This document shows positions 21,041-29,569 of a stretch of DNA of 56,006 nucleotides, piece after piece (within the stretch, counting starts at the first letter, position 1; every line of letters begins with the position of its first letter). Origin of the DNA: Parcubacteria group bacterium LiPW_41. GTDB taxonomy: Bacteria; Patescibacteriota; Minisyncoccia; UBA6257; GWB1-50-10. The notes beneath the pieces are model-generated. The model was not told the origin of the DNA. It was given only the letters and a program-made list of their open reading frames with translations, and ran no database searches. The DNA lies in contig VMEM01000006.1 of the NCBI GenBank assembly GCA_007375535.1, forward strand, positions 1 to 56,006, given 5' to 3'. Both the position numbers and the translations under genes were made by a program.

Positions 21041-22366
21041 TTATTTGCATCCAGAATCTCTCCCATGTGGATATCCAACAAGAGACGGAAGATATGTTGC
21101 CGGATCAATGGTGACACCAATCGGCACAACTCCAGCTGCTGGTGGTATTACTTTATATTGTAACGTAGGGGCCCACAAAACACCAAAATGTAAATGTGGC
21201 CCAAATGAATAACCAGTATTACCCGAATATCCTATTATCATTCCTTTTTCCACTCGATCTCCCTCTTTTACTGACTGCGAAGAAAGATGGGCATAAATGG
21301 TGGCAAGATTATTGTCATGTTTTATAACAACATATTTTCCATATTGATATTTTGTCCATCGAGTTTTTCCTCGATCGTTATTCCCTACCTTTACAATTTT
21401 TCCTGATTCAACTGCAAGAATGGGAGTTCCAACTGGTGTTCCAAAATCAACTCCGTTATGCGATTTTGTTTTGTACAATTTCTGTGCTGAAGGAGTCTTT
21501 CCATAACACTGCGTTACATATGGTGACTCAACTGGAAAATCCAAAACTCCAAATCGTTGAATTGGTAAAAGATTTGGGTTGAATCCAGAGCGCAGCTTGT
21601 CTTCTACTGCAGCAATTGCATTTCCAATTTCTTCCTGCTTCTTATCAAGTTCTTCAAGTTGTTTTGCATACAGTTGCTCTTGTGATTTTGTAACCTCAAG
21701 AATTTTTTGTTTTTCTGCTTTTTGTTCCGCAGTTATTTGTTGCAAAGATTGTAACGTCTCTTTTTGTGTTTCTTTTTGTCCTTTCTTTTGTTTTGTTAAT
21801 TGAAGCTTATCTTTGTATTCAACTTGTAATGATTGTAAATCTTTTATATTAGTTGACAAAGCAGAATTAAGTGTTTTAATAGTTTCAATTTTTTCGATAC
21901 TATCACTCAAGGATTCACTCTTTAACAATCGCTCAATAAATGACTCACTATCTGCCTGTTGTAACTCCCCTACTAATCTTCCAATAGCTATTCTCTTTGT
22001 CTCGATTTCATTGGCGATATTACGAATATCACTGCCTAAAACACCAATTTCCATATCAAGCTTTTCAATATGAACCGAACTTGATTTTATAGAAAGATTC
22101 AATTGATTAATACTTGTATTGTAAACTTGAATATCTTTTTTTAATGAATTTCCAACCTCACTTACCGCATCAAGTGAGCGCTGCAAAAGATCTCTTTGTT
22201 CTTTTATTTTTTCGAGCTCACTACTTTTTTCTTGAATATTTTTTTCTAAATCACCAAGCGCATTAGAAAAAAAAGAAAACGGAGAAGACTGCGCAAAGAC
22301 ACTATTAAAAAGAAAAAAGACAACAACGGCTACGCTCGCGATACATAATCTAAGCGTTTTTTTCAT
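21041..22366 (-). CDS. Coiled-coil + M23 peptidase (EnvC/PcsB-like murein hydrolase)
   Basis: Signal peptide, long coiled coil, H.G.D (HNGVD) and HxH (GPHLHF) zinc motifs. Confidence 0.9.
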   Translation of the reverse strand: MKKTLRLCIASVAVVVFFLFNSVFAQSSPFSFFSNALGDLEKNIQEKSSELEKIKEQRDLLQRSLDAVSEVGNSLKKDIQVYNTSINQLNLSIKSSSVHIEKLDMEIGVLGSDIRNIANEIETKRIAIGRLVGELQQADSESFIERLLKSESLSDSIEKIETIKTLNSALSTNIKDLQSLQVEYKDKLQLTKQKKGQKETQKETLQSLQQITAEQKAEKQKILEVTKSQEQLYAKQLEELDKKQEEIGNAIAAVEDKLRSGFNPNLLPIQRFGVLDFPVESPYVTQCYGKTPSAQKLYKTKSHNGVDFGTPVGTPILAVESGKIVKVGNNDRGKTRWTKYQYGKYVVIKHDNNLATIYAHLSSQSVKEGDRVEKGMIIGYSGNTGYSFGPHLHFGVLWAPTLQYKVIPPAAGVVPIGVTIDPATYLPSLVGYPHGRDSGCK

Positions 22367-22367
22367 A

Positions 22368-23753
22368 TTAAGAAATTTTTTGAATCGCAATTTCTATCCT
22401 CTTTTCGGCTTCACTAGATCCAAGTACCGTTAAAAGTTCAATTGGTCCAGGTGAATTTTGAAGTCCAGAAAGCGCAACACGAAGTGGCCACAATACATTT
22501 CCCTTTCCTTCCTTTGTTGCATACTCCATTATTTGCGTAGCACTATCTCCCCCTTTTCTGAGAATGGTCAAAATTTCTTCTAAATGCTTCTTTGATTCCG
22601 AAAGTGGCAGATCTTTCCACATAAGAAGTTGAGAATCATATGAAATAATCTCAAAAAATGGACGCGCCTCAATTCTAAAATCGCTTAATTTTTTCATTCG
22701 CTCCCGAGCAAGCTCAACTGCTCGAGAAAGTTTTTCCTTGTTGGATTTCCATTCTTCAGGAATGAATGTGAGTACTTGTTCAACAAGATCAGGAAGTGGA
22801 ACCATTCGTATGTGCATAGCATTCAGCCAATCAAGTTTTTCAGTATTGTATACTGCACCAGCTTTTTGAACTCGTTTGAGAGAAAATTCTTTTTTCATCT
22901 CTTCGACAGTTAATATTTCTCGATCATTTTCTGGATGCCAACCCAACAAAACAAGAAAATTCAAAACCGCAGAAGGAAGATATCCCTCTTCACGATATTT
23001 ATTCAATGCGTCTTGAATAAACCTCTTTGAAAGTTTCTTTTTGTTTGCATCTAAGATAAGTGGCAAGTGCCCATACTGAACGTGTGGGAAACCAAGCAAA
23101 TCCTGAATCACAACTTGCTTTGGAGTATTTGGTAAATGCTCCTCTCCACGGATGACATGGGTAATTTTTGTTTCATGATCGTCAATTACTACTGCAAAAT
23201 TATAAAGAGGCTCTAAAAGATTTTTTGCAATAATGATATCACCAAATAATTTTGTCTCGAAACTAACCTTTCCACGAATTACATCATTAAATACAACTGT
23301 TTCTTCTGGCATTTTAATTCTAATAACAGAACTAAGCGCCATTTTCTTTTGCTCTTCGATATCTTTTGCGCGAGAACGACATCGCCCGCTATACTTCGGT
23401 ACCAATCCCTGACTCATTTGCGCTTGATATTCCGCCTCAAGATCTTCTTCGGAACACGTGCAACAATATGCTTTTCCTTCTTCGATAAGCTTCAAAAGAT
23501 AGTTTTTGTAGGTTTCCGTACGTTCACTTTGACGCCAAATTGGCTCATCGGAATATATTCCAAACCATTCAAGGTTTTTAATAATATCGTCTTCAAAGCG
23601 CTTTTCTGAACGCTCTTTGTCTGTATCTTCAATACGCAAAATAAACTTTCCACCCTCTTTTTTAGCGAAAAGCCAGTTAAATAGCGCTGTTCTAACACCC
23701 CCAATATGTAGAAATCCTGTCGGCGATGGTGCAAAACGTACACGAACACTCAT
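22368..23753 (-). CDS. gltX: Glutamate--tRNA ligase
   Basis: RVRFAPSPTG.LHIGG, RIEDTD, KLSKR. Confidence 0.97.
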   Translation of the reverse strand: MSVRVRFAPSPTGFLHIGGVRTALFNWLFAKKEGGKFILRIEDTDKERSEKRFEDDIIKNLEWFGIYSDEPIWRQSERTETYKNYLLKLIEEGKAYCCTCSEEDLEAEYQAQMSQGLVPKYSGRCRSRAKDIEEQKKMALSSVIRIKMPEETVVFNDVIRGKVSFETKLFGDIIIAKNLLEPLYNFAVVIDDHETKITHVIRGEEHLPNTPKQVVIQDLLGFPHVQYGHLPLILDANKKKLSKRFIQDALNKYREEGYLPSAVLNFLVLLGWHPENDREILTVEEMKKEFSLKRVQKAGAVYNTEKLDWLNAMHIRMVPLPDLVEQVLTFIPEEWKSNKEKLSRAVELARERMKKLSDFRIEARPFFEIISYDSQLLMWKDLPLSESKKHLEEILTILRKGGDSATQIMEYATKEGKGNVLWPLRVALSGLQNSPGPIELLTVLGSSEAEKRIEIAIQKIS

Positions 23754-23785
23754 ATGCCCCATTATACCTCATTTTTGAGCCTCCG

Positions 23786-24937
23786 TCACGCTTTTACGAG
23801 CCCATTTACCTCTTCAGCAATTCGAACTGCAGACTGAGGAACAAAGAAGGTGTTAATCACTTCTTCTCCATTTTTTGGTTTAAAATCTGAGGAAATGAGA
23901 GTATGAATTCTTGACTGAAGTGTATGAAGTGTCATATTAGCTTCCTCAAGTACAAAAGCATATCCAGTTTTTGAATATGAGAATGCATTAACCCTCTGAT
24001 GATCTCCCGCAGATTCTTCAAGAGGAATGAGAATTGATGGCGTCTTAAATGATGCTATCTCAAAAATTGCACCAGAACCTGCACGAGAAATAATAACATC
24101 AGCAGCGGTCATTGCGTGTTTCATTTCTTCAACACTCATATATGCAATCGCTCTATATCTACTATGAAGTTCTCGAGGTACAAGCGCCATTATCTCGCGC
24201 ATAGACATTTCAATTTCTTGATAATTACCTTGGCCCACTTGATGTAAAACTTGTACATCTTTAAGTAATTCCACCAAATTCTCTGTTATAAATGAATTTA
24301 TTCGTTGTGACCCCTGAGACCCACCAAGAACTAATGCTAATGGGATGTGTTCATCCATTCTCCAAAAATTTTTTGCTCCTTCTTTTGACATCCTGTTCTT
24401 TATAAATTCATCACGAATTGGATTTCCAGTAATAACTACTTTTTTTTCATTAAAGAATTCTTTCGATTCAGAAAATGCAACACAAATCTTATCAGCAAAT
24501 TTTGAAGAAATTTTGTTTGAAAGTCCAGGAACTGCATCTGACTCATGAATAACAATAGGAATTCTATAAAACCAAGCGGCAATAACAACAGGAATTGATC
24601 CTGGTCCCCCTTTTGAAAAAAGTACATCAGGCATTACCAAGAGTAAAGAAAAAAGTGCTTGGAATATACTAATAAAAAATTTTGGTACATCAAAAATATT
24701 TTGAATAGAAGCATATCGCCTCAATCTACTTCCAATTATTGGATGAACACGAATATTTCTGAATTCAAATTCATTCAAATAAATTCCGGGATTTCCAAAA
24801 TAATGAAACGTAACAACTGTATCGTCATAAGGACCGCGTTTTTTTGAAAGCGCGTCGCATACTGAAAGTAATGGATAAATATGTCCACCTGTTCCACCTC
24901 CAGTAATTCCTATTCTTATTTTTTTATTTTCTCTCAT
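23786..24937 (-). CDS. murG: MurG N-acetylglucosaminyl transferase
   Basis: TGGGTGGHIYP, IHESD..PG, GNPIR, GGSQG, SRAG, HQ..NA. Confidence 0.95.
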   Translation of the reverse strand: MRENKKIRIGITGGGTGGHIYPLLSVCDALSKKRGPYDDTVVTFHYFGNPGIYLNEFEFRNIRVHPIIGSRLRRYASIQNIFDVPKFFISIFQALFSLLLVMPDVLFSKGGPGSIPVVIAAWFYRIPIVIHESDAVPGLSNKISSKFADKICVAFSESKEFFNEKKVVITGNPIRDEFIKNRMSKEGAKNFWRMDEHIPLALVLGGSQGSQRINSFITENLVELLKDVQVLHQVGQGNYQEIEMSMREIMALVPRELHSRYRAIAYMSVEEMKHAMTAADVIISRAGSGAIFEIASFKTPSILIPLEESAGDHQRVNAFSYSKTGYAFVLEEANMTLHTLQSRIHTLISSDFKPKNGEEVINTFFVPQSAVRIAEEVNGLVKA

Positions 24938-24939
24938 AG

Positions 24940-26070
24940 TTATCGTTTATATTTTGATACATTTGCAATAATTCCTGCCATAGTAAGAAATACAGCAAGA
25001 GCTGTTCCTCCATAACTCACAAACGGTAGCGGAACACCAGTTAAAGGAATAACCCCAGAGATTGCAGCAATATTAACAAATGTCTGAAGTCCCAATATAC
25101 TCATAAACCCAACAACTAAATATTTTCCAAAACTATCTGGGGCACGAGTAGCAATTCTAAACCCACGCCAAAGAAACGCTAAGAAAAAAATAAGAAATCC
25201 AATTGCCCCAATAAATCCAAGTTCCTCTGCAATAACAGCAAAGATAGAATCCCCAATTGGTTCAGGGAGAAAATGAAGTTTTGAAGTAGATTTTCCAAAT
25301 CCAACCCCAAACACTCCTCCAGATCCAATTGCATTGAGGGCCTGATTTATATGCCAACCCTTCCCAAGTGGATCACTTTCTGGATGCAAAAAAGTTGTAA
25401 CACGCTTCAATCGATAATTTTCTCCACTCTCATTTTTTACCCCAAAAATGAGAACACCCAAAGAAACAACCCCAATAAGAATCATTCCAATAAAAAACTT
25501 TGGTTTTGCTCCCGCAATAAAATAAGTAATAAGAGAAGAAAAAAACACAAGTGCAGCTGTTGAAGTTGCTGGTTGCAATATAAGCAAAATCATCACCGCA
25601 CCAACAAGAAGTGAAAAGGGAATAAAACCACTAATAAAACTTTTACTTCGTTCTTGATTTTTTCCAACCCACGCAGATAAGTAAACAAGAAATGCTAACT
25701 TAATGAACTCACCGGGTTGGAACTTAAAGACTTTAAAATCAACCCAACGAGCGCCACCTTTTTGTACATCAACCAACGGAGTAAATACCAAACACAATAA
25801 TATAATTCCAAGAACAAGAAGTGGAATTGAAATTTTTTCCCACACTCTATAATACAAAAAATATCCAATAAGGAATCCAATTATCCCAACAGATAACCCA
25901 TTTGTTATTTGATGTTTAAGAAAATACATACTATCCCCCGTTTCTGTTTTTGCTAAATCAGAAGACGCACTCGTTAGTATTACTAAACCAAAAATAATAA
26001 TAACAATAAGGAATCCAAGAAAAACAAAATCAGGAGATGAACTTTTAGGAATTCGTATCTTTTTAATCAT
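24940..26070 (-). CDS. ftsW: SEDS peptidoglycan polymerase FtsW
   Basis: About 10 TM helices, GGARW, QPGEF.K, GSGG..G.G, PFVSYGG; ATGA-coupled start at 26070. Confidence 0.93.
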   Translation of the reverse strand: MIKKIRIPKSSSPDFVFLGFLIVIIIFGLVILTSASSDLAKTETGDSMYFLKHQITNGLSVGIIGFLIGYFLYYRVWEKISIPLLVLGIILLCLVFTPLVDVQKGGARWVDFKVFKFQPGEFIKLAFLVYLSAWVGKNQERSKSFISGFIPFSLLVGAVMILLILQPATSTAALVFFSSLITYFIAGAKPKFFIGMILIGVVSLGVLIFGVKNESGENYRLKRVTTFLHPESDPLGKGWHINQALNAIGSGGVFGVGFGKSTSKLHFLPEPIGDSIFAVIAEELGFIGAIGFLIFFLAFLWRGFRIATRAPDSFGKYLVVGFMSILGLQTFVNIAAISGVIPLTGVPLPFVSYGGTALAVFLTMAGIIANVSKYKR

Positions 26071-27572
26071 TTTACTGTTGATTTGATAACCATACCGCTT
26101 CGAACACCGCAGATTTCCTTTTCCTGGCTCCAAAAATGTGTTCCATTTACGAAAGTGTCAACGGGTTTATTTTCAGACCAAATAACAATATCAGCATAAT
26201 TTCCCTCAACTATAGATCCTCTATTTTTAATTCCAAACTTTTTTGCGGGAATACTTGTCACCTTTTCAACTGCCTTCTCAAATGGAATAATTTTCTTTTT
26301 CTGTACAAGAGAAAAGAATTCAGGAATGGTACTTATTCCTTGATGTTGTTTAAATTCCTTTTTCCCAAACGCAGCACTGTTTGAGGAAATAATTGATTGG
26401 GAACTATTTATTGCGTCTTGCAATAATTGCGTATCAACTGACTTTGCACCCACTGTTGCTCTAAACCGCGTTATGATCATCAACTGAATAATCATAGACT
26501 CATATGATTTATTTTCTCGCATTGAAAGTTCTCGAATTGATTTTCCCTCAAGAAACTTTAACGCTTTATCTGGTATATGACTTATTACATAATCCCGTGC
26601 TGCGTTCTTTTTCAAAAAATCAATAATACGTGAGGAAAATGCATTTGACTTTATGCCTTGATACATTCGATCAAATGACTCATCTTGTGCCCATTCTGGA
26701 AGTAATTCATAAATGAGAAGTGGGATTGTTTCAAATGTATTCACATCAAAATGAACATGAGCAGTATTTGCATGATTTGAAATATGCAACAAAGCTTCTG
26801 CATATTGCTTTCCATACTTCTTTATTGGTTGCATATGACTAATATGCATGTTTGCCTGTGTGTGTTCAGAAATCTCAATACATTCACGAACGGACTCCAT
26901 TACTCCCTCTTTCATGTCCCGCATATGAATGGCACAAACACCACCACGGCGCGTCACCGCCCGCGCAATATGCTCAATTTCATAAAATGGAGTTTTCACT
27001 CCATGGATATGTCCCAACCCAAAAGAGACACCAAGTGCTCCCTCATGAATTGATACTTCCACCATTCTTTCAATCGAATGTATTTCTCCATCAGTAAGAT
27101 CACGAAACATATTTTTCGTAATTCCCTTTCTCAACCCAGTATATCCAACTAAAGTTCCAAAATTTACACCAAGTGGTTTATTTTTTATGTAAAGAAGAAA
27201 ATCTCTCATTGTTTTCCAACTTACATTTATACCCACATTGCTGCCCCATTCCGCTGCAATATCAGGAGGAACCCCAAAAAGTGGAGCAAGAGACACACCA
27301 CAATTTCCTCCAACTATTGAAGTTATACCCTGAGAAACAAAATCTTGTTGATTTGGTTCATAAAATAAAGAATAGTGATGGTCAGAATGTGTAGTAATAT
27401 CAATACACCCAGGTGTAACAATCATCCCACCAGCATCAATAACCTCATCCCCATGGGAACGAGACAAGTTTCCAATTTTCGTAATACGCTCTCCACGAAT
27501 AAGAACGTCCCTCTGTTCTGGAATATTTCCGAGACCATCATATACTAAGCCATTTTTTATGAGAACAGCCAT
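26067..27572 (-). CDS. N-acyl-D-amino-acid deacylase-like amidohydrolase, catalytically degenerate
   Basis: PG.ID..THSD, GNCG, HMRD, ISH, G.I..G.YADIV motifs; first His and catalytic Asp replaced. Confidence 0.85.
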   Translation of the reverse strand: MAVLIKNGLVYDGLGNIPEQRDVLIRGERITKIGNLSRSHGDEVIDAGGMIVTPGCIDITTHSDHHYSLFYEPNQQDFVSQGITSIVGGNCGVSLAPLFGVPPDIAAEWGSNVGINVSWKTMRDFLLYIKNKPLGVNFGTLVGYTGLRKGITKNMFRDLTDGEIHSIERMVEVSIHEGALGVSFGLGHIHGVKTPFYEIEHIARAVTRRGGVCAIHMRDMKEGVMESVRECIEISEHTQANMHISHMQPIKKYGKQYAEALLHISNHANTAHVHFDVNTFETIPLLIYELLPEWAQDESFDRMYQGIKSNAFSSRIIDFLKKNAARDYVISHIPDKALKFLEGKSIRELSMRENKSYESMIIQLMIITRFRATVGAKSVDTQLLQDAINSSQSIISSNSAAFGKKEFKQHQGISTIPEFFSLVQKKKIIPFEKAVEKVTSIPAKKFGIKNRGSIVEGNYADIVIWSENKPVDTFVNGTHFWSQEKEICGVRSGMVIKSTVK

Positions 27573-27599: not shown

Positions 27600-28646
27600 T
27601 TATATAAACCGAGCGATGAAAAACAACGCAAGACCAACAGTAGTGGTTACTGCGGTAATAAACCAAAAACGCATTGTAATTTGTGTTTCTGGCCATCCGA
27701 GAGCTTCAAAATGATGATGTATTGGCGTAGAAAGAAAAATTTTCTTTTTTCGTATCTTTTTACTTAACATTTGGATGATCACAGTTATCGATTCAAACAC
27801 AAGAATTGATCCAAAGAATGGAAGAAAGAAAACGCTATTGGTGAGCATCGCCATTGCACCAACGGTGATTCCTAGCGACATCGAACCAGTGTCCCCCATA
27901 AAAAACCGAGCGGGATAAATATTAAACCAAAGAAACGCAAGAAGCGCACCTAAAATTACCGCGTTCATCGCTGCAAGATCAAAATGCTTAATAGTAAATG
28001 CAATAACGGTAAACGCCCCAAAAATAAAGAATAATGTTCCACCAGCAAGTCCATCAAGTCCATCAGTTTCATTTGTTGAAAATGCAGAAGCAATAATAAC
28101 AAACATAAATAATGGAATATACCACCAACCAATAATTACATCACCGAGAAAAGGAATATAAATCGAATTCCATCCGAGACGGAAATAAAACCACCACGCA
28201 CCAACAGCAGAAACGACAGTGTACATGAGAATTTTATGCCTCATACTGAGCCCCCCACCCTTAGGACCAATACGCAAAACACCCAAAAAATCATCAATCA
28301 AACCAACAATTGCTGCGAATAGAAGATACCCAAGTGGAAGATATGTTTCTGATCTACTAATGAAGTTAAAATAATTTGCAAATCCACCAAATAATTCTCC
28401 AAAAATAAAAAATAATAATGCTAATAGTATAACCGTACCCCAGATAATAACGCCTCCCATAGTTGGAGTTTCCCCTTTATTTTTATGAAATTGATGAAAC
28501 ACTGGGGCAGTTTCTGCATCCCGAATATTTTTCTTTTTTATTCCAAATTTCATCAAAATCCTTAAAACAATCGGAGTAATCATAAGAGCCACCACAAACG
28601 AAAGGGCAAATAATATAAGAACACGAATTGCTTCAAATGCTACCAT
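27600..28646 (-). CDS. mraY: Phospho-N-acetylmuramoyl-pentapeptide transferase
   Basis: K..TPTMGG, GLIDD, N.TDGLDGLA, FMGDTGS, P.HHHFE. Confidence 0.97.
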   Translation of the reverse strand: MVAFEAIRVLILFALSFVVALMITPIVLRILMKFGIKKKNIRDAETAPVFHQFHKNKGETPTMGGVIIWGTVILLALLFFIFGELFGGFANYFNFISRSETYLPLGYLLFAAIVGLIDDFLGVLRIGPKGGGLSMRHKILMYTVVSAVGAWWFYFRLGWNSIYIPFLGDVIIGWWYIPLFMFVIIASAFSTNETDGLDGLAGGTLFFIFGAFTVIAFTIKHFDLAAMNAVILGALLAFLWFNIYPARFFMGDTGSMSLGITVGAMAMLTNSVFFLPFFGSILVFESITVIIQMLSKKIRKKKIFLSTPIHHHFEALGWPETQITMRFWFITAVTTTVGLALFFIARFI

Positions 28647-28654
28647 AGTCGTAA

Positions 28655-29569
28655 TTATTTTTTCTCCTCAGGATATGCCGACTGAATCCAATCAAACAAT
28701 TTTTCCTTTGTGTTTACCCTATCATAACTTCCTAAAATTATACAAACAACACGTTCCCCGCGAAACGTGAAAAAACCAAGTATATTCTCTCTCGCCTCAG
28801 GAGATGTCCCTGTTTTTCCACCAAGAAAAGAGAAGTCTTTTATAAAAGGATTTACATTGTAAACAATTCTGCTTTCAGAACTATTTGTCGCTTGAGCAAA
28901 AAAACTCTGCAAACGAGTTAGACTCAAAATTTCTGGATGTTTCTCTGCAATATACCGAGCAAGTTTTATAAGATCATTTGGCGTTGAAACATTTTTAGGA
29001 GAAATTCCGGAAGCATCCTCAAGAAATGTATCATTCATTCCAATCTCTATTGCTTTTTTATTTAATAACGAAACAAATGCCACACGTCCACCTGCAACTT
29101 CTTCAATTGCTGTTGCAGCATCATTTGATGATGCTAACAATAAAATAGTAATTAAATCTTGCCCAGAATACACTTCACCGCTTTTGAATTCACCAGACAA
29201 CCCTTCGGTTTCAAGTGCAACTTTTGAAATCGGTATTTTCTTTTGAATACCAATATCTTCAATAAGAACAACTGTTGTAAGAAGTTTTGTAATTGATGCA
29301 ATTGGCCATTTTTTATATGTCTGATAATTCAAATAAGAAAAATTAGAATCAAGAGAGTAAACCATTGCTCCTTCCCCATTGATAACAGGGTCCGAAATAT
29401 TCCAATCTCTCGTTGGATATTTTTTTTGTTCTTTTTTTTCTGAAAGCACTATTTCTTCCTGACTTTTATTTACTTCATCTTTTTTTTCGTCTTTAACAAA
29501 AAAATTAGAAACTACAACCGAAACAATAAGGAGACAAATAAGTAAGAAAAACTGAACATGTGATTTCAT
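28655..29569 (-). CDS. D-Ala-D-Ala carboxypeptidase (peptidase S11)
   Basis: SxxK (ASITK), SxN (SSN), KTG motifs; N-terminal anchor. Confidence 0.9.
   Translation of the reverse strand: MKSHVQFFLLICLLIVSVVVSNFFVKDEKKDEVNKSQEEIVLSEKKEQKKYPTRDWNISDPVINGEGAMVYSLDSNFSYLNYQTYKKWPIASITKLLTTVVLIEDIGIQKKIPISKVALETEGLSGEFKSGEVYSGQDLITILLLASSNDAATAIEEVAGGRVAFVSLLNKKAIEIGMNDTFLEDASGISPKNVSTPNDLIKLARYIAEKHPEILSLTRLQSFFAQATNSSESRIVYNVNPFIKDFSFLGGKTGTSPEARENILGFFTFRGERVVCIILGSYDRVNTKEKLFDWIQSAYPEEKK

Follow-up and report, generated by a model that had tools for sequence, protein, structure and literature searches.

The window analysed here, a stretch of 56,006 nucleotides from Parcubacteria group bacterium LiPW_41 (contig VMEM01000006.1, positions 1 to 56,006 of the forward strand), carries a division and cell-wall (dcw) gene cluster in which a gene for a D-aminoacylase-like amidohydrolase homologue, hereafter AH, lies between mraY and ftsW. 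AH is a well-folded and strongly conserved relative of the D-amino-acid deacylases in the cell-wall cluster of ultra-small Patescibacteria, without the residues on which their chemistry depends. The genes that make up the locus are the following:

26067..27572, minus strand: AH, a 501-residue amidohydrolase homologue with the D-aminoacylase fold and a degenerate active site (open reading frame, Pfam, PDB match, AlphaFold2, Foldseek)
27600..28646, minus strand: mraY, the upstream neighbour in the same operon-like run (TIGR00445, 203.5 bits, over the cut-off)
24940..26070, minus strand: ftsW, encoding a SEDS protein (profile matches; ATG at 26070)
23786..24937, minus strand: murG (profile matches)
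28655..29569, minus strand: DacS11, an S11 D-Ala-D-Ala carboxypeptidase directly before mraY (profile match)
21041..23762, minus strand: gltX and an M23 peptidase, which close the block on its downstream side and are conserved in the window's order (open reading frames, profiles)

A sequence-only reading of the window had described the order mraY-[amidohydrolase]-ftsW-murG with an ATGA overlap, and reading frames, profile matches and the junction sequence all agree with it: AH ends in ...GTA AAA TGA, ftsW begins with ATG ATT AAA..., and the ftsW ATG at 26070 overlaps the AH stop codon as ATGA. A 4-nt overlap is likewise called in three relatives (L140-L142). AH itself is predicted to be cytoplasmic, because its N-terminus aligns to the start of the beta-domain of the Alcaligenes D-aminoacylase (hereafter DAA). 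Further upstream, DacS11 stands ahead of mraY in each of the three context groups in which mraY is present, and a scpA-scpB-dac-mraY arrangement is kept across distant Patescibacteria classes. In a search for RNA evidence the AH locus was present only in DNA metagenome runs, from groundwater and mine drainage.

AH passes the Pfam models Amidohydro_3 and Amidohydro_1, both of them generic, and is matched weakly by many NCBIfam amidohydrolase models (best PRK09061, 75.9 bits against a cut-off of 340), and as a candidate N-acyl-D-amino-acid deacylase (subtype V, EC 3.5.1.81/82) it passes no curated family cut-off. Its best sequence match in the PDB is DAA (1m7j, E 8e-42), with further matches to the carbohydrate deacetylase PpOngB, the Klebsiella D-acylase and the N-acyl-D-glutamate deacylase 3gip. 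From an alignment of 41 family members AlphaFold2 produced a model with a predicted local distance difference test (pLDDT) score of 92.8 and a predicted template-modelling (pTM) score of 0.92. When this model was compared with known structures by Foldseek, the top nine matches were D-aminoacylase-type enzymes (1m7j, 1rjq, 9kb3, 9g5m and 3gip among them) with template-modelling (TM) scores of 0.80-0.86, and the next were dihydroorotases and allantoinases at about 0.55. The model shows the architecture of the deacylase fold, a beta-sandwich domain and a (beta/alpha)8 barrel with an inserted alpha/beta lid, and 23 columns are invariant across the 41 sequences, which are 29-78% identical to the window protein. 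AH fits an unnamed Patescibacterial dcw family of about 500-565 residues, with the DAA fold and encoded directly upstream of murD or ftsW. Its identification as a D-aminoacylase homologue, first made from the letters of the DNA, is upheld by the Pfam, 1m7j and AlphaFold2/Foldseek results together. A profile scan of AH found no Mur-ligase domain (Mur_ligase_M, ATP-binding), and AH has no PP-loop domain and, by phmmer, no similarity to the MurL domain.

To map the active site, the 1m7j sequence was rebuilt from HMMER output and aligned with 100 family members using MAFFT, a sequence-based mapping in which ten positions were scored (H67, H69, C96, Y192, H220, H250, Y283, P284, D366 and R377 in DAA numbering). 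At these positions the window AH reads THCHHHNTNQ and DAA reads HHCYHHYPDR, and the corresponding sites in the window are:

27387..27395, minus strand: T60-T61-H62, equivalent to DAA H67-x-H69, with the first His replaced by Thr (PDB alignment, MAFFT)
27300..27302, minus strand: C91, equivalent to DAA Cys96, a beta-site metal ligand, kept (MAFFT mapping)
27009..27011, minus strand: H188, equivalent to DAA Tyr192, the acyl/oxyanion-site Tyr, replaced by His (MAFFT; role from PMC12149444)
26925..26927, minus strand: H216, equivalent to DAA His220, a beta-site ligand, kept (profile-to-PDB alignment, MAFFT)
26835..26837, minus strand: H246, equivalent to DAA His250, a beta-site ligand, kept (profile-to-PDB alignment, MAFFT)
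26736..26741, minus strand: N278-T279, equivalent to DAA Tyr283-Pro284, the carboxylate-site Tyr and the YPY hinge Pro, both replaced (MAFFT; PMC12149444)
26379..26381, minus strand: N398, equivalent to DAA Asp366, the general base/acid after beta-8, replaced by Asn (profile-to-PDB alignment, MAFFT)
26340..26342, minus strand: Q411, equivalent to DAA Arg377, the alpha-carboxylate-binding Arg, replaced by Gln (profile-to-PDB alignment, MAFFT)

The motifs that contain these residues are GGNCG (C91), HMRD (H216), ISH (H246), TTH (T60, H62) and SSNS (N398), so that the kept beta-site ligands, the TTH in place of HxH and the SSNS in place of the GSDG region, all noted from the sequence beforehand, are confirmed. 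The assignment of the D366 position is secure, because the family profile aligns as 'siiasNsas' on the 'MIGSDG' of DAA exactly where the D366A mutant entry 1rjq reads 'MIGSAG', and MAFFT agrees. The canonical catalytic apparatus is indeed degenerate, as the sequence-only reading had it, and the degeneration extends beyond H67T and D366N to Y192H, Y283N, P284T and R377Q. In the homologue PpOngB the substitutions D368A, H68A and H70A each abolish activity (PMC12017989), and in the Klebsiella D-acylase KleDacyl the carboxylate site is made up of Tyr279, Arg373 and the YPY hinge (PMC12149444). Because AH has lost the base, the first His, the oxyanion Tyr and the carboxylate clamp, and in view of the PpOngB mutants, canonical hydrolysis of N-acyl-D-amino acids by the window AH is most likely not to be expected. 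The Cys/His/His triad is kept in 7/7 members of the window's clade and in about 90% of the order, and together with His62 this site could still hold a metal. The earlier proposal of a non-catalytic binder or sensor of D-aminoacyl ligands therefore divides into two: its non-catalytic part is the one we favour, and its D-aminoacyl part is weakened for the window AH, because the carboxylate clamp (Tyr283, Arg377), the YPY hinge Pro and the oxyanion Tyr192 are all replaced.

The catalytic residues of the AH family are lost stepwise, from the murD-linked forms through the window's order to the window itself. Forms encoded in mraY-AH-murD arrangements read QHCYHHYPDR and keep Asp366 in 13/16 and Tyr283, Pro284 and Arg377 in 16/16, those encoded in gapA-AH-murD arrangements read NHCYHHYPNR, and those of the window's order read NDCYHHYPNR, with Asp366 in 2/72, Arg377 in 51/72 and Tyr283 in 44/72. 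Within the order the D366 position also shows N, G, H, A and R, and a few members of the family lack the Cys/His/His triad too (e.g. P0075, L016, L018, L020 and L055). The most degenerate group is the window's own clade, in which Asp366 and His67 are gone from all members and Tyr192, Tyr283 and Arg377 from most. In a maximum-likelihood tree the ftsW-linked forms, the window AH included, make up one clade with support of 100/99, and the subclade that contains the window AH evolves fast, the window AH itself having a long terminal branch (0.79).

Despite this erosion AH is functional and under purifying selection. Ratios of nonsynonymous to synonymous substitution (dN/dS) were determined between the window and two close relatives of the same gene order (78% and 86% identity), all from the clade lacking MurC and MurD, and came to 0.08-0.11 for AH, 0.08 for murG, 0.10 for gltX, 0.06-0.08 for ftsW and 0.03 for mraY.

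The sequence-only reading placed AH in the murD slot of the cluster. A scan of species-representative genomes found an AH relative encoded in at least 558 of them. In the best 80 AH loci, on which synteny was counted, AH is followed by ftsW-murG(-gltX-M23) in 74, mraY lies directly upstream in about half, and most AH-ftsW junctions measure -4 to +26 nt; murD comes after AH in four loci that are more distant, and murD-murI once. AH and murD match coordinates were also compared in an even phylum sample of 301 Patescibacteria genomes. Of the 30 best matches from beyond the window's order in this sample, about 20 have murD immediately downstream of AH, and in four more the two lie within about 1.5 kb of each other. 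Inspection of 20 such distant contexts gave scpA-scpB-dac-mraY-AH-murD-ftsW-murG-murC-murB as the prevalent order; mraY-AH-murD-ftsW occurs in 15 of the 20, with murI or murL between AH and murD in two of the 15, murI adjoins AH in four of the 20, and one (genome G074) has murL between AH and murD. In a second arrangement the cluster is broken and reads gapA-AH-murD. The position between mraY and ftsW is thus real, but replacement of murD is not borne out, as AH normally lies between mraY and murD; it only seems to fill a murD slot here because murD has moved out of the cluster in the window's order. We read AH as a regular extra member of the dcw cluster whose ancestral neighbour is predicted to be murD, not as a murD substitute.

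The distribution of AH leads to the same picture of a gene whose position is anything but sporadic among relatives, with the AH-ftsW pairing in 74/80 loci and AH itself in 98/121 genomes of the window's order. MurD scores over the cut-off in 81/121 genomes of the order; most of its MurD-less genomes keep AH and most of its AH-less families keep MurD, so AH does not depend on MurD there. A bona fide MurD is encoded elsewhere in the genome in 36/50 related AH-bearing genomes, and MurD is present in 43/46 AH-positive genomes of the phylum sample. Glutamate racemase, MurI, occurs in 24/46 AH-positive and in about 35% of AH-negative genomes, without any anticorrelation between the two across the 301 genomes, and is absent from 11/12 genomes tested in the group of the window's order; no MurL turned up in the roughly 4 kb around the relocated murD in any of 16 regions from that order. 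For the putative scavenging of wall precursors proposed in the sequence-only reading, these co-occurrence data show no link of AH to D-Glu supply. As separate observations, the window's class in the 301-genome sample has a MurD-strength match in 13/17 genomes and a glutamate racemase in only 2/17, and in five genomes of one family of the order (f132; G356, G386, G412, G434 and G455) the AH, murD and murC matches contain 1-7 in-frame TGA codons. As these matches align over their full length in spite of the TGA codons, this family may decode TGA as a sense codon.

The assembly of the window's genome spans 747 kb in 6 contigs (C1-C6) and is 98.8% complete. It encodes MurA, MurB, MurE, MurF, two Ddl-type ATP-grasp proteins, MraY, MurG, FtsW and FtsI, and MurC, MurD, MurI and MurL were not found genome-wide: searches with PF08245 and TIGR01087 matched only MurE and MurF, and the MurL domain taken from a relative's MurL-MurD fusion gave no phmmer match among all open reading frames of the genome, AH included. 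That divergent forms of MurC, MurD or MurI had been missed by E. coli queries was considered and rejected, as a repeat search with up to 12 Patescibacterial queries each returned only MurE and MurF cross-matches. The earlier remark that no Mur ligase lies in the window is therefore correct, the genome's only two Mur-ligase-type genes being MurE on contig C5 and MurF on C1, and of the murC-F set for which a genome-wide check had been proposed, MurE and MurF were found and MurC and MurD were not. MurC and MurD are also absent from the five closest relatives (G001-G005), and the next relatives have both; MurI is absent from four of these five (G003 has it), in which MurL was not searched. MurB was found in only 2/6 of the MurC/MurD-less genomes, namely the window's genome and these five relatives, and its absence from the other four suggests that the cytoplasmic wall pathway is eroding while the mraY-AH-ftsW-murG block persists.

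Several further features of wall metabolism were seen in these genomes. MurE (C5:147415-148668) is only 417 residues long and its model match starts at position 75, without the usual N-terminal UDP-binding domain; Mur-ligase reading frames of like length (about 420-445 residues) occur in relatives. A cytoplasmic LD-carboxypeptidase for murein-peptide recycling (Peptidase_S66, LdcA-like; C6:104607-105590, plus strand) adjoins the second Ddl-type ATP-grasp ligase (C6:105636-106640, minus strand). We considered the latter as a clade-specific bypass ligase and rejected it, since close orthologues occur both in MurC/MurD-less and in MurC/MurD-containing genomes. In another genome (G034) a MurL-MurD fusion of 848 residues (L143:1927-4473, minus strand) matches the MurL model NF041275 over residues 7-423 (E 8e-94) and the murD model TIGR01087 over residues 466-843, and reading frames of similar length (847-887 residues) occur in G015, G039, G383, G409 and G452. 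As the fusion matches both models, the MurD2/MurL route, in which L-Glu is added and then epimerised, appears to exist in Patescibacteria, which the 2021 review PMC8788868 does not list for it.

Taken together, we favour, with moderate confidence, a reading in which AH, a pseudoenzyme without hydrolytic activity that possibly binds a metal, works together with MraY, MurG and FtsW in the membrane-associated steps of wall synthesis. In such a model the ancestor of the AH family would have been inserted into the division/cell-wall cluster between mraY and murD; murD later left the cluster in the window's order, bringing AH up against ftsW and into translational coupling with it, and in the window's genus-level clade murC and murD are absent while AH is kept. 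The window AH retains the fold and a possible metal site, has most likely lost the hydrolysis of N-acyl-D-amino acids, and might act as a scaffold, adaptor or ligand-binding regulator beside MraY, MurG and FtsW. Two considerations weigh against this. The proposed partnership with MraY, MurG and FtsW is read from gene order and coupling, and about half of the order's loci have no mraY immediately ahead of AH, which leaves the AH-ftsW pairing as the robust one. Moreover, a metal-dependent reaction could survive in AH, with the base supplied by His62 or another residue, given that most of the order keeps the Cys/His/His triad.

This last point is the core of the strongest rival, in which AH is still an enzyme, a mononuclear metallo-hydrolase or isomerase with a rebuilt pocket that acts on some other substrate of wall metabolism, for instance an N-acetyl sugar acid or precursor amide. 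We regard it as rather unlikely. The beta-site ligands, intact throughout the window's clade, and the strong purifying selection on AH fit it well, and E. coli NagA works with QxN instead of HxH. The fold has also been retargeted to a sugar acid once already, in the GlcNAc1A deacetylase PpOngB (PMC12017989). However, every characterised subtype V member needs the beta-8 Asp (PpOngB D368A is inactive), the assortment of N, G, H, A and R at this position in the order looks more like a relaxation of constraint than like the arrival of a new catalytic residue, and the triad itself is lost in some AH members. A role outside the cell wall, with AH as an operon hitch-hiker or in some other structural or moonlighting capacity, we consider distinctly improbable: the tie of AH to peptidoglycan is its gene context, and the block also carries gltX, scpA and scpB, but three different arrangements place AH within the mraY-(murD)-ftsW core, it travels with murD when the cluster breaks (gapA-AH-murD), and its tight junctions with ftsW suggest co-translation. 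Hardly any credence can be given to AH as a decaying, functionless remnant. The progressive loss of catalytic residues and the long terminal branch of 0.79 are what such a remnant would show, yet the 501-residue frame is intact, 23 columns are invariant in 41 sequences, the AlphaFold2 model is confident, and a dN/dS of 0.08-0.11, equal to that of the essential neighbours, effectively refutes it.

Two further rivals make AH part of the cytoplasmic pathway, and both are very unlikely. If AH replaced MurD, or MurC and MurD together, in a non-canonical route that needs no Mur ligase and either makes or skips stem-peptide positions 1-2, it would account for a genome that has MurA, MurB, MurE, MurF, MraY and MurG without MurC, MurD, MurI and MurL and in which AH is kept under selection. 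Against this, AH occurs alongside MurD in most of the genomes counted above (36/50 and 43/46), ancestrally adjoins murD, lacks an ATP-binding motif or Mur-ligase domain, and has an amidohydrolase fold that offers no driving force for amide synthesis, while the missing MurB in 4/6 MurC/MurD-less genomes suggests erosion of the pathway and not its bypass. The other has AH handling D-glutamate, by freeing D-Glu from scavenged N-acyl-D-Glu or L-Ala-D-Glu, or by epimerising a Glu-terminated precursor for MurD, and we find it similarly hard to credit. It draws on the N-acyl-D-Glu deacylase 3gip among the closest characterised relatives, on distant AH genes that adjoin murD together with murI or murL, on the retention of Asp366, Tyr283 and Arg377 in murD-linked forms, and on the near absence of MurI (11/12 genomes) from the group of the window's order. 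As a salvage route in place of MurI it is rejected by the missing anticorrelation with MurI in the 301 genomes; in addition, AH and MurD occur independently in the window's order, the window's clade keeps AH without any MurD to use the D-Glu, and the window AH, without carboxylate clamp and base, is already a disfavoured candidate for such chemistry. We also considered AH as a MurL and rejected it, MurL being a different, PP-loop-type protein (NF041275) with no similarity to any open reading frame of the genome.

Going beyond the pseudoenzyme partner that we favour, one may speculate, as an unlikely extension, that AH is an essential non-enzymatic subunit of the MraY-MurG-FtsW machinery in Paceibacteria-type bacteria, a former binder of D-acyl-amino acids turned precursor-handling or regulatory adaptor, which would feed external or unconventional precursors into MraY and FtsW where MurC and MurD (and, in the window's genome, MurI and MurL) have been dropped. 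A study of dcw evolution that excluded Patescibacteria concluded that since the last bacterial common ancestor the cluster has lost genes and probably gained none (PMC8871954), and an essential adaptor of this kind, if true, would mean that a cluster otherwise taken to evolve by loss alone had acquired a gene. The division/cell-wall cluster is among the most conserved gene arrays of bacteria, and the presence in hundreds of Patescibacteria species of an extra member that is strongly selected and progressively loses its catalytic residues indicates that wall synthesis or division in this large uncultivated radiation has a component so far overlooked; a full-text literature search found no paper on an amidohydrolase in Patescibacterial dcw clusters. 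The retention of AH, MraY, MurG and FtsW without MurC and MurD also raises the question of where these episymbionts obtain their stem-peptide precursors, and the AH family offers a natural series, plausibly leading from active enzyme to pseudoenzyme, that is open to biochemistry.

Finally, we compared AH with the known systems closest to it. With MurD and the MurD2/MurL route AH has its genomic neighbourhood in common, lying directly upstream of murD in most distant relatives and, in G074, of murL-murD, and it has no sequence or fold relation to these proteins. DAA of Alcaligenes faecalis DA1 (1M7J; mutants 1RJQ and 1V4Y) and the Klebsiella D-acylase (9G5M, 9GV8) share the three-part fold (TM 0.80-0.86, 21-25% identity by Foldseek), the Cys/His/His beta-site ligands and the second His of HxH with AH, whereas AH differs from DAA in the six substitutions H67T, Y192H, Y283N, P284T, D366N and R377Q, and its gene lies in a cell-wall cluster instead of catabolic contexts. 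PpOngB, the GlcNAc1A deacetylase (9KB1, 9KB3), has the same fold on a scaffold retargeted to a sugar-derived ligand (PMC12017989), and keeps His68, His70 and Asp368 along with the triad, in contrast to the window AH, which naturally carries two inactivating lesions. The N-acyl-D-glutamate deacylase Bb3285 of Bordetella bronchiseptica (3GIP, 3GIQ) is also alike in fold (TM 0.80-0.85), and its specificity for D-Glu echoes the murI/murL/murD neighbourhood of distant AH members; the window AH, however, is without base and carboxylate clamp, in a genome without MurD, MurI and MurL. The CRMP/DPYSL (dihydropyrimidinase-related) proteins provide a precedent, as members of the amidohydrolase superfamily that lost catalysis and serve as binding or scaffolding proteins. 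They are weaker Foldseek matches of AH (4B91, 6JV9; TM about 0.55) and, unlike it, belong to another subfamily, are eukaryotic and act in processes unrelated to cell walls.

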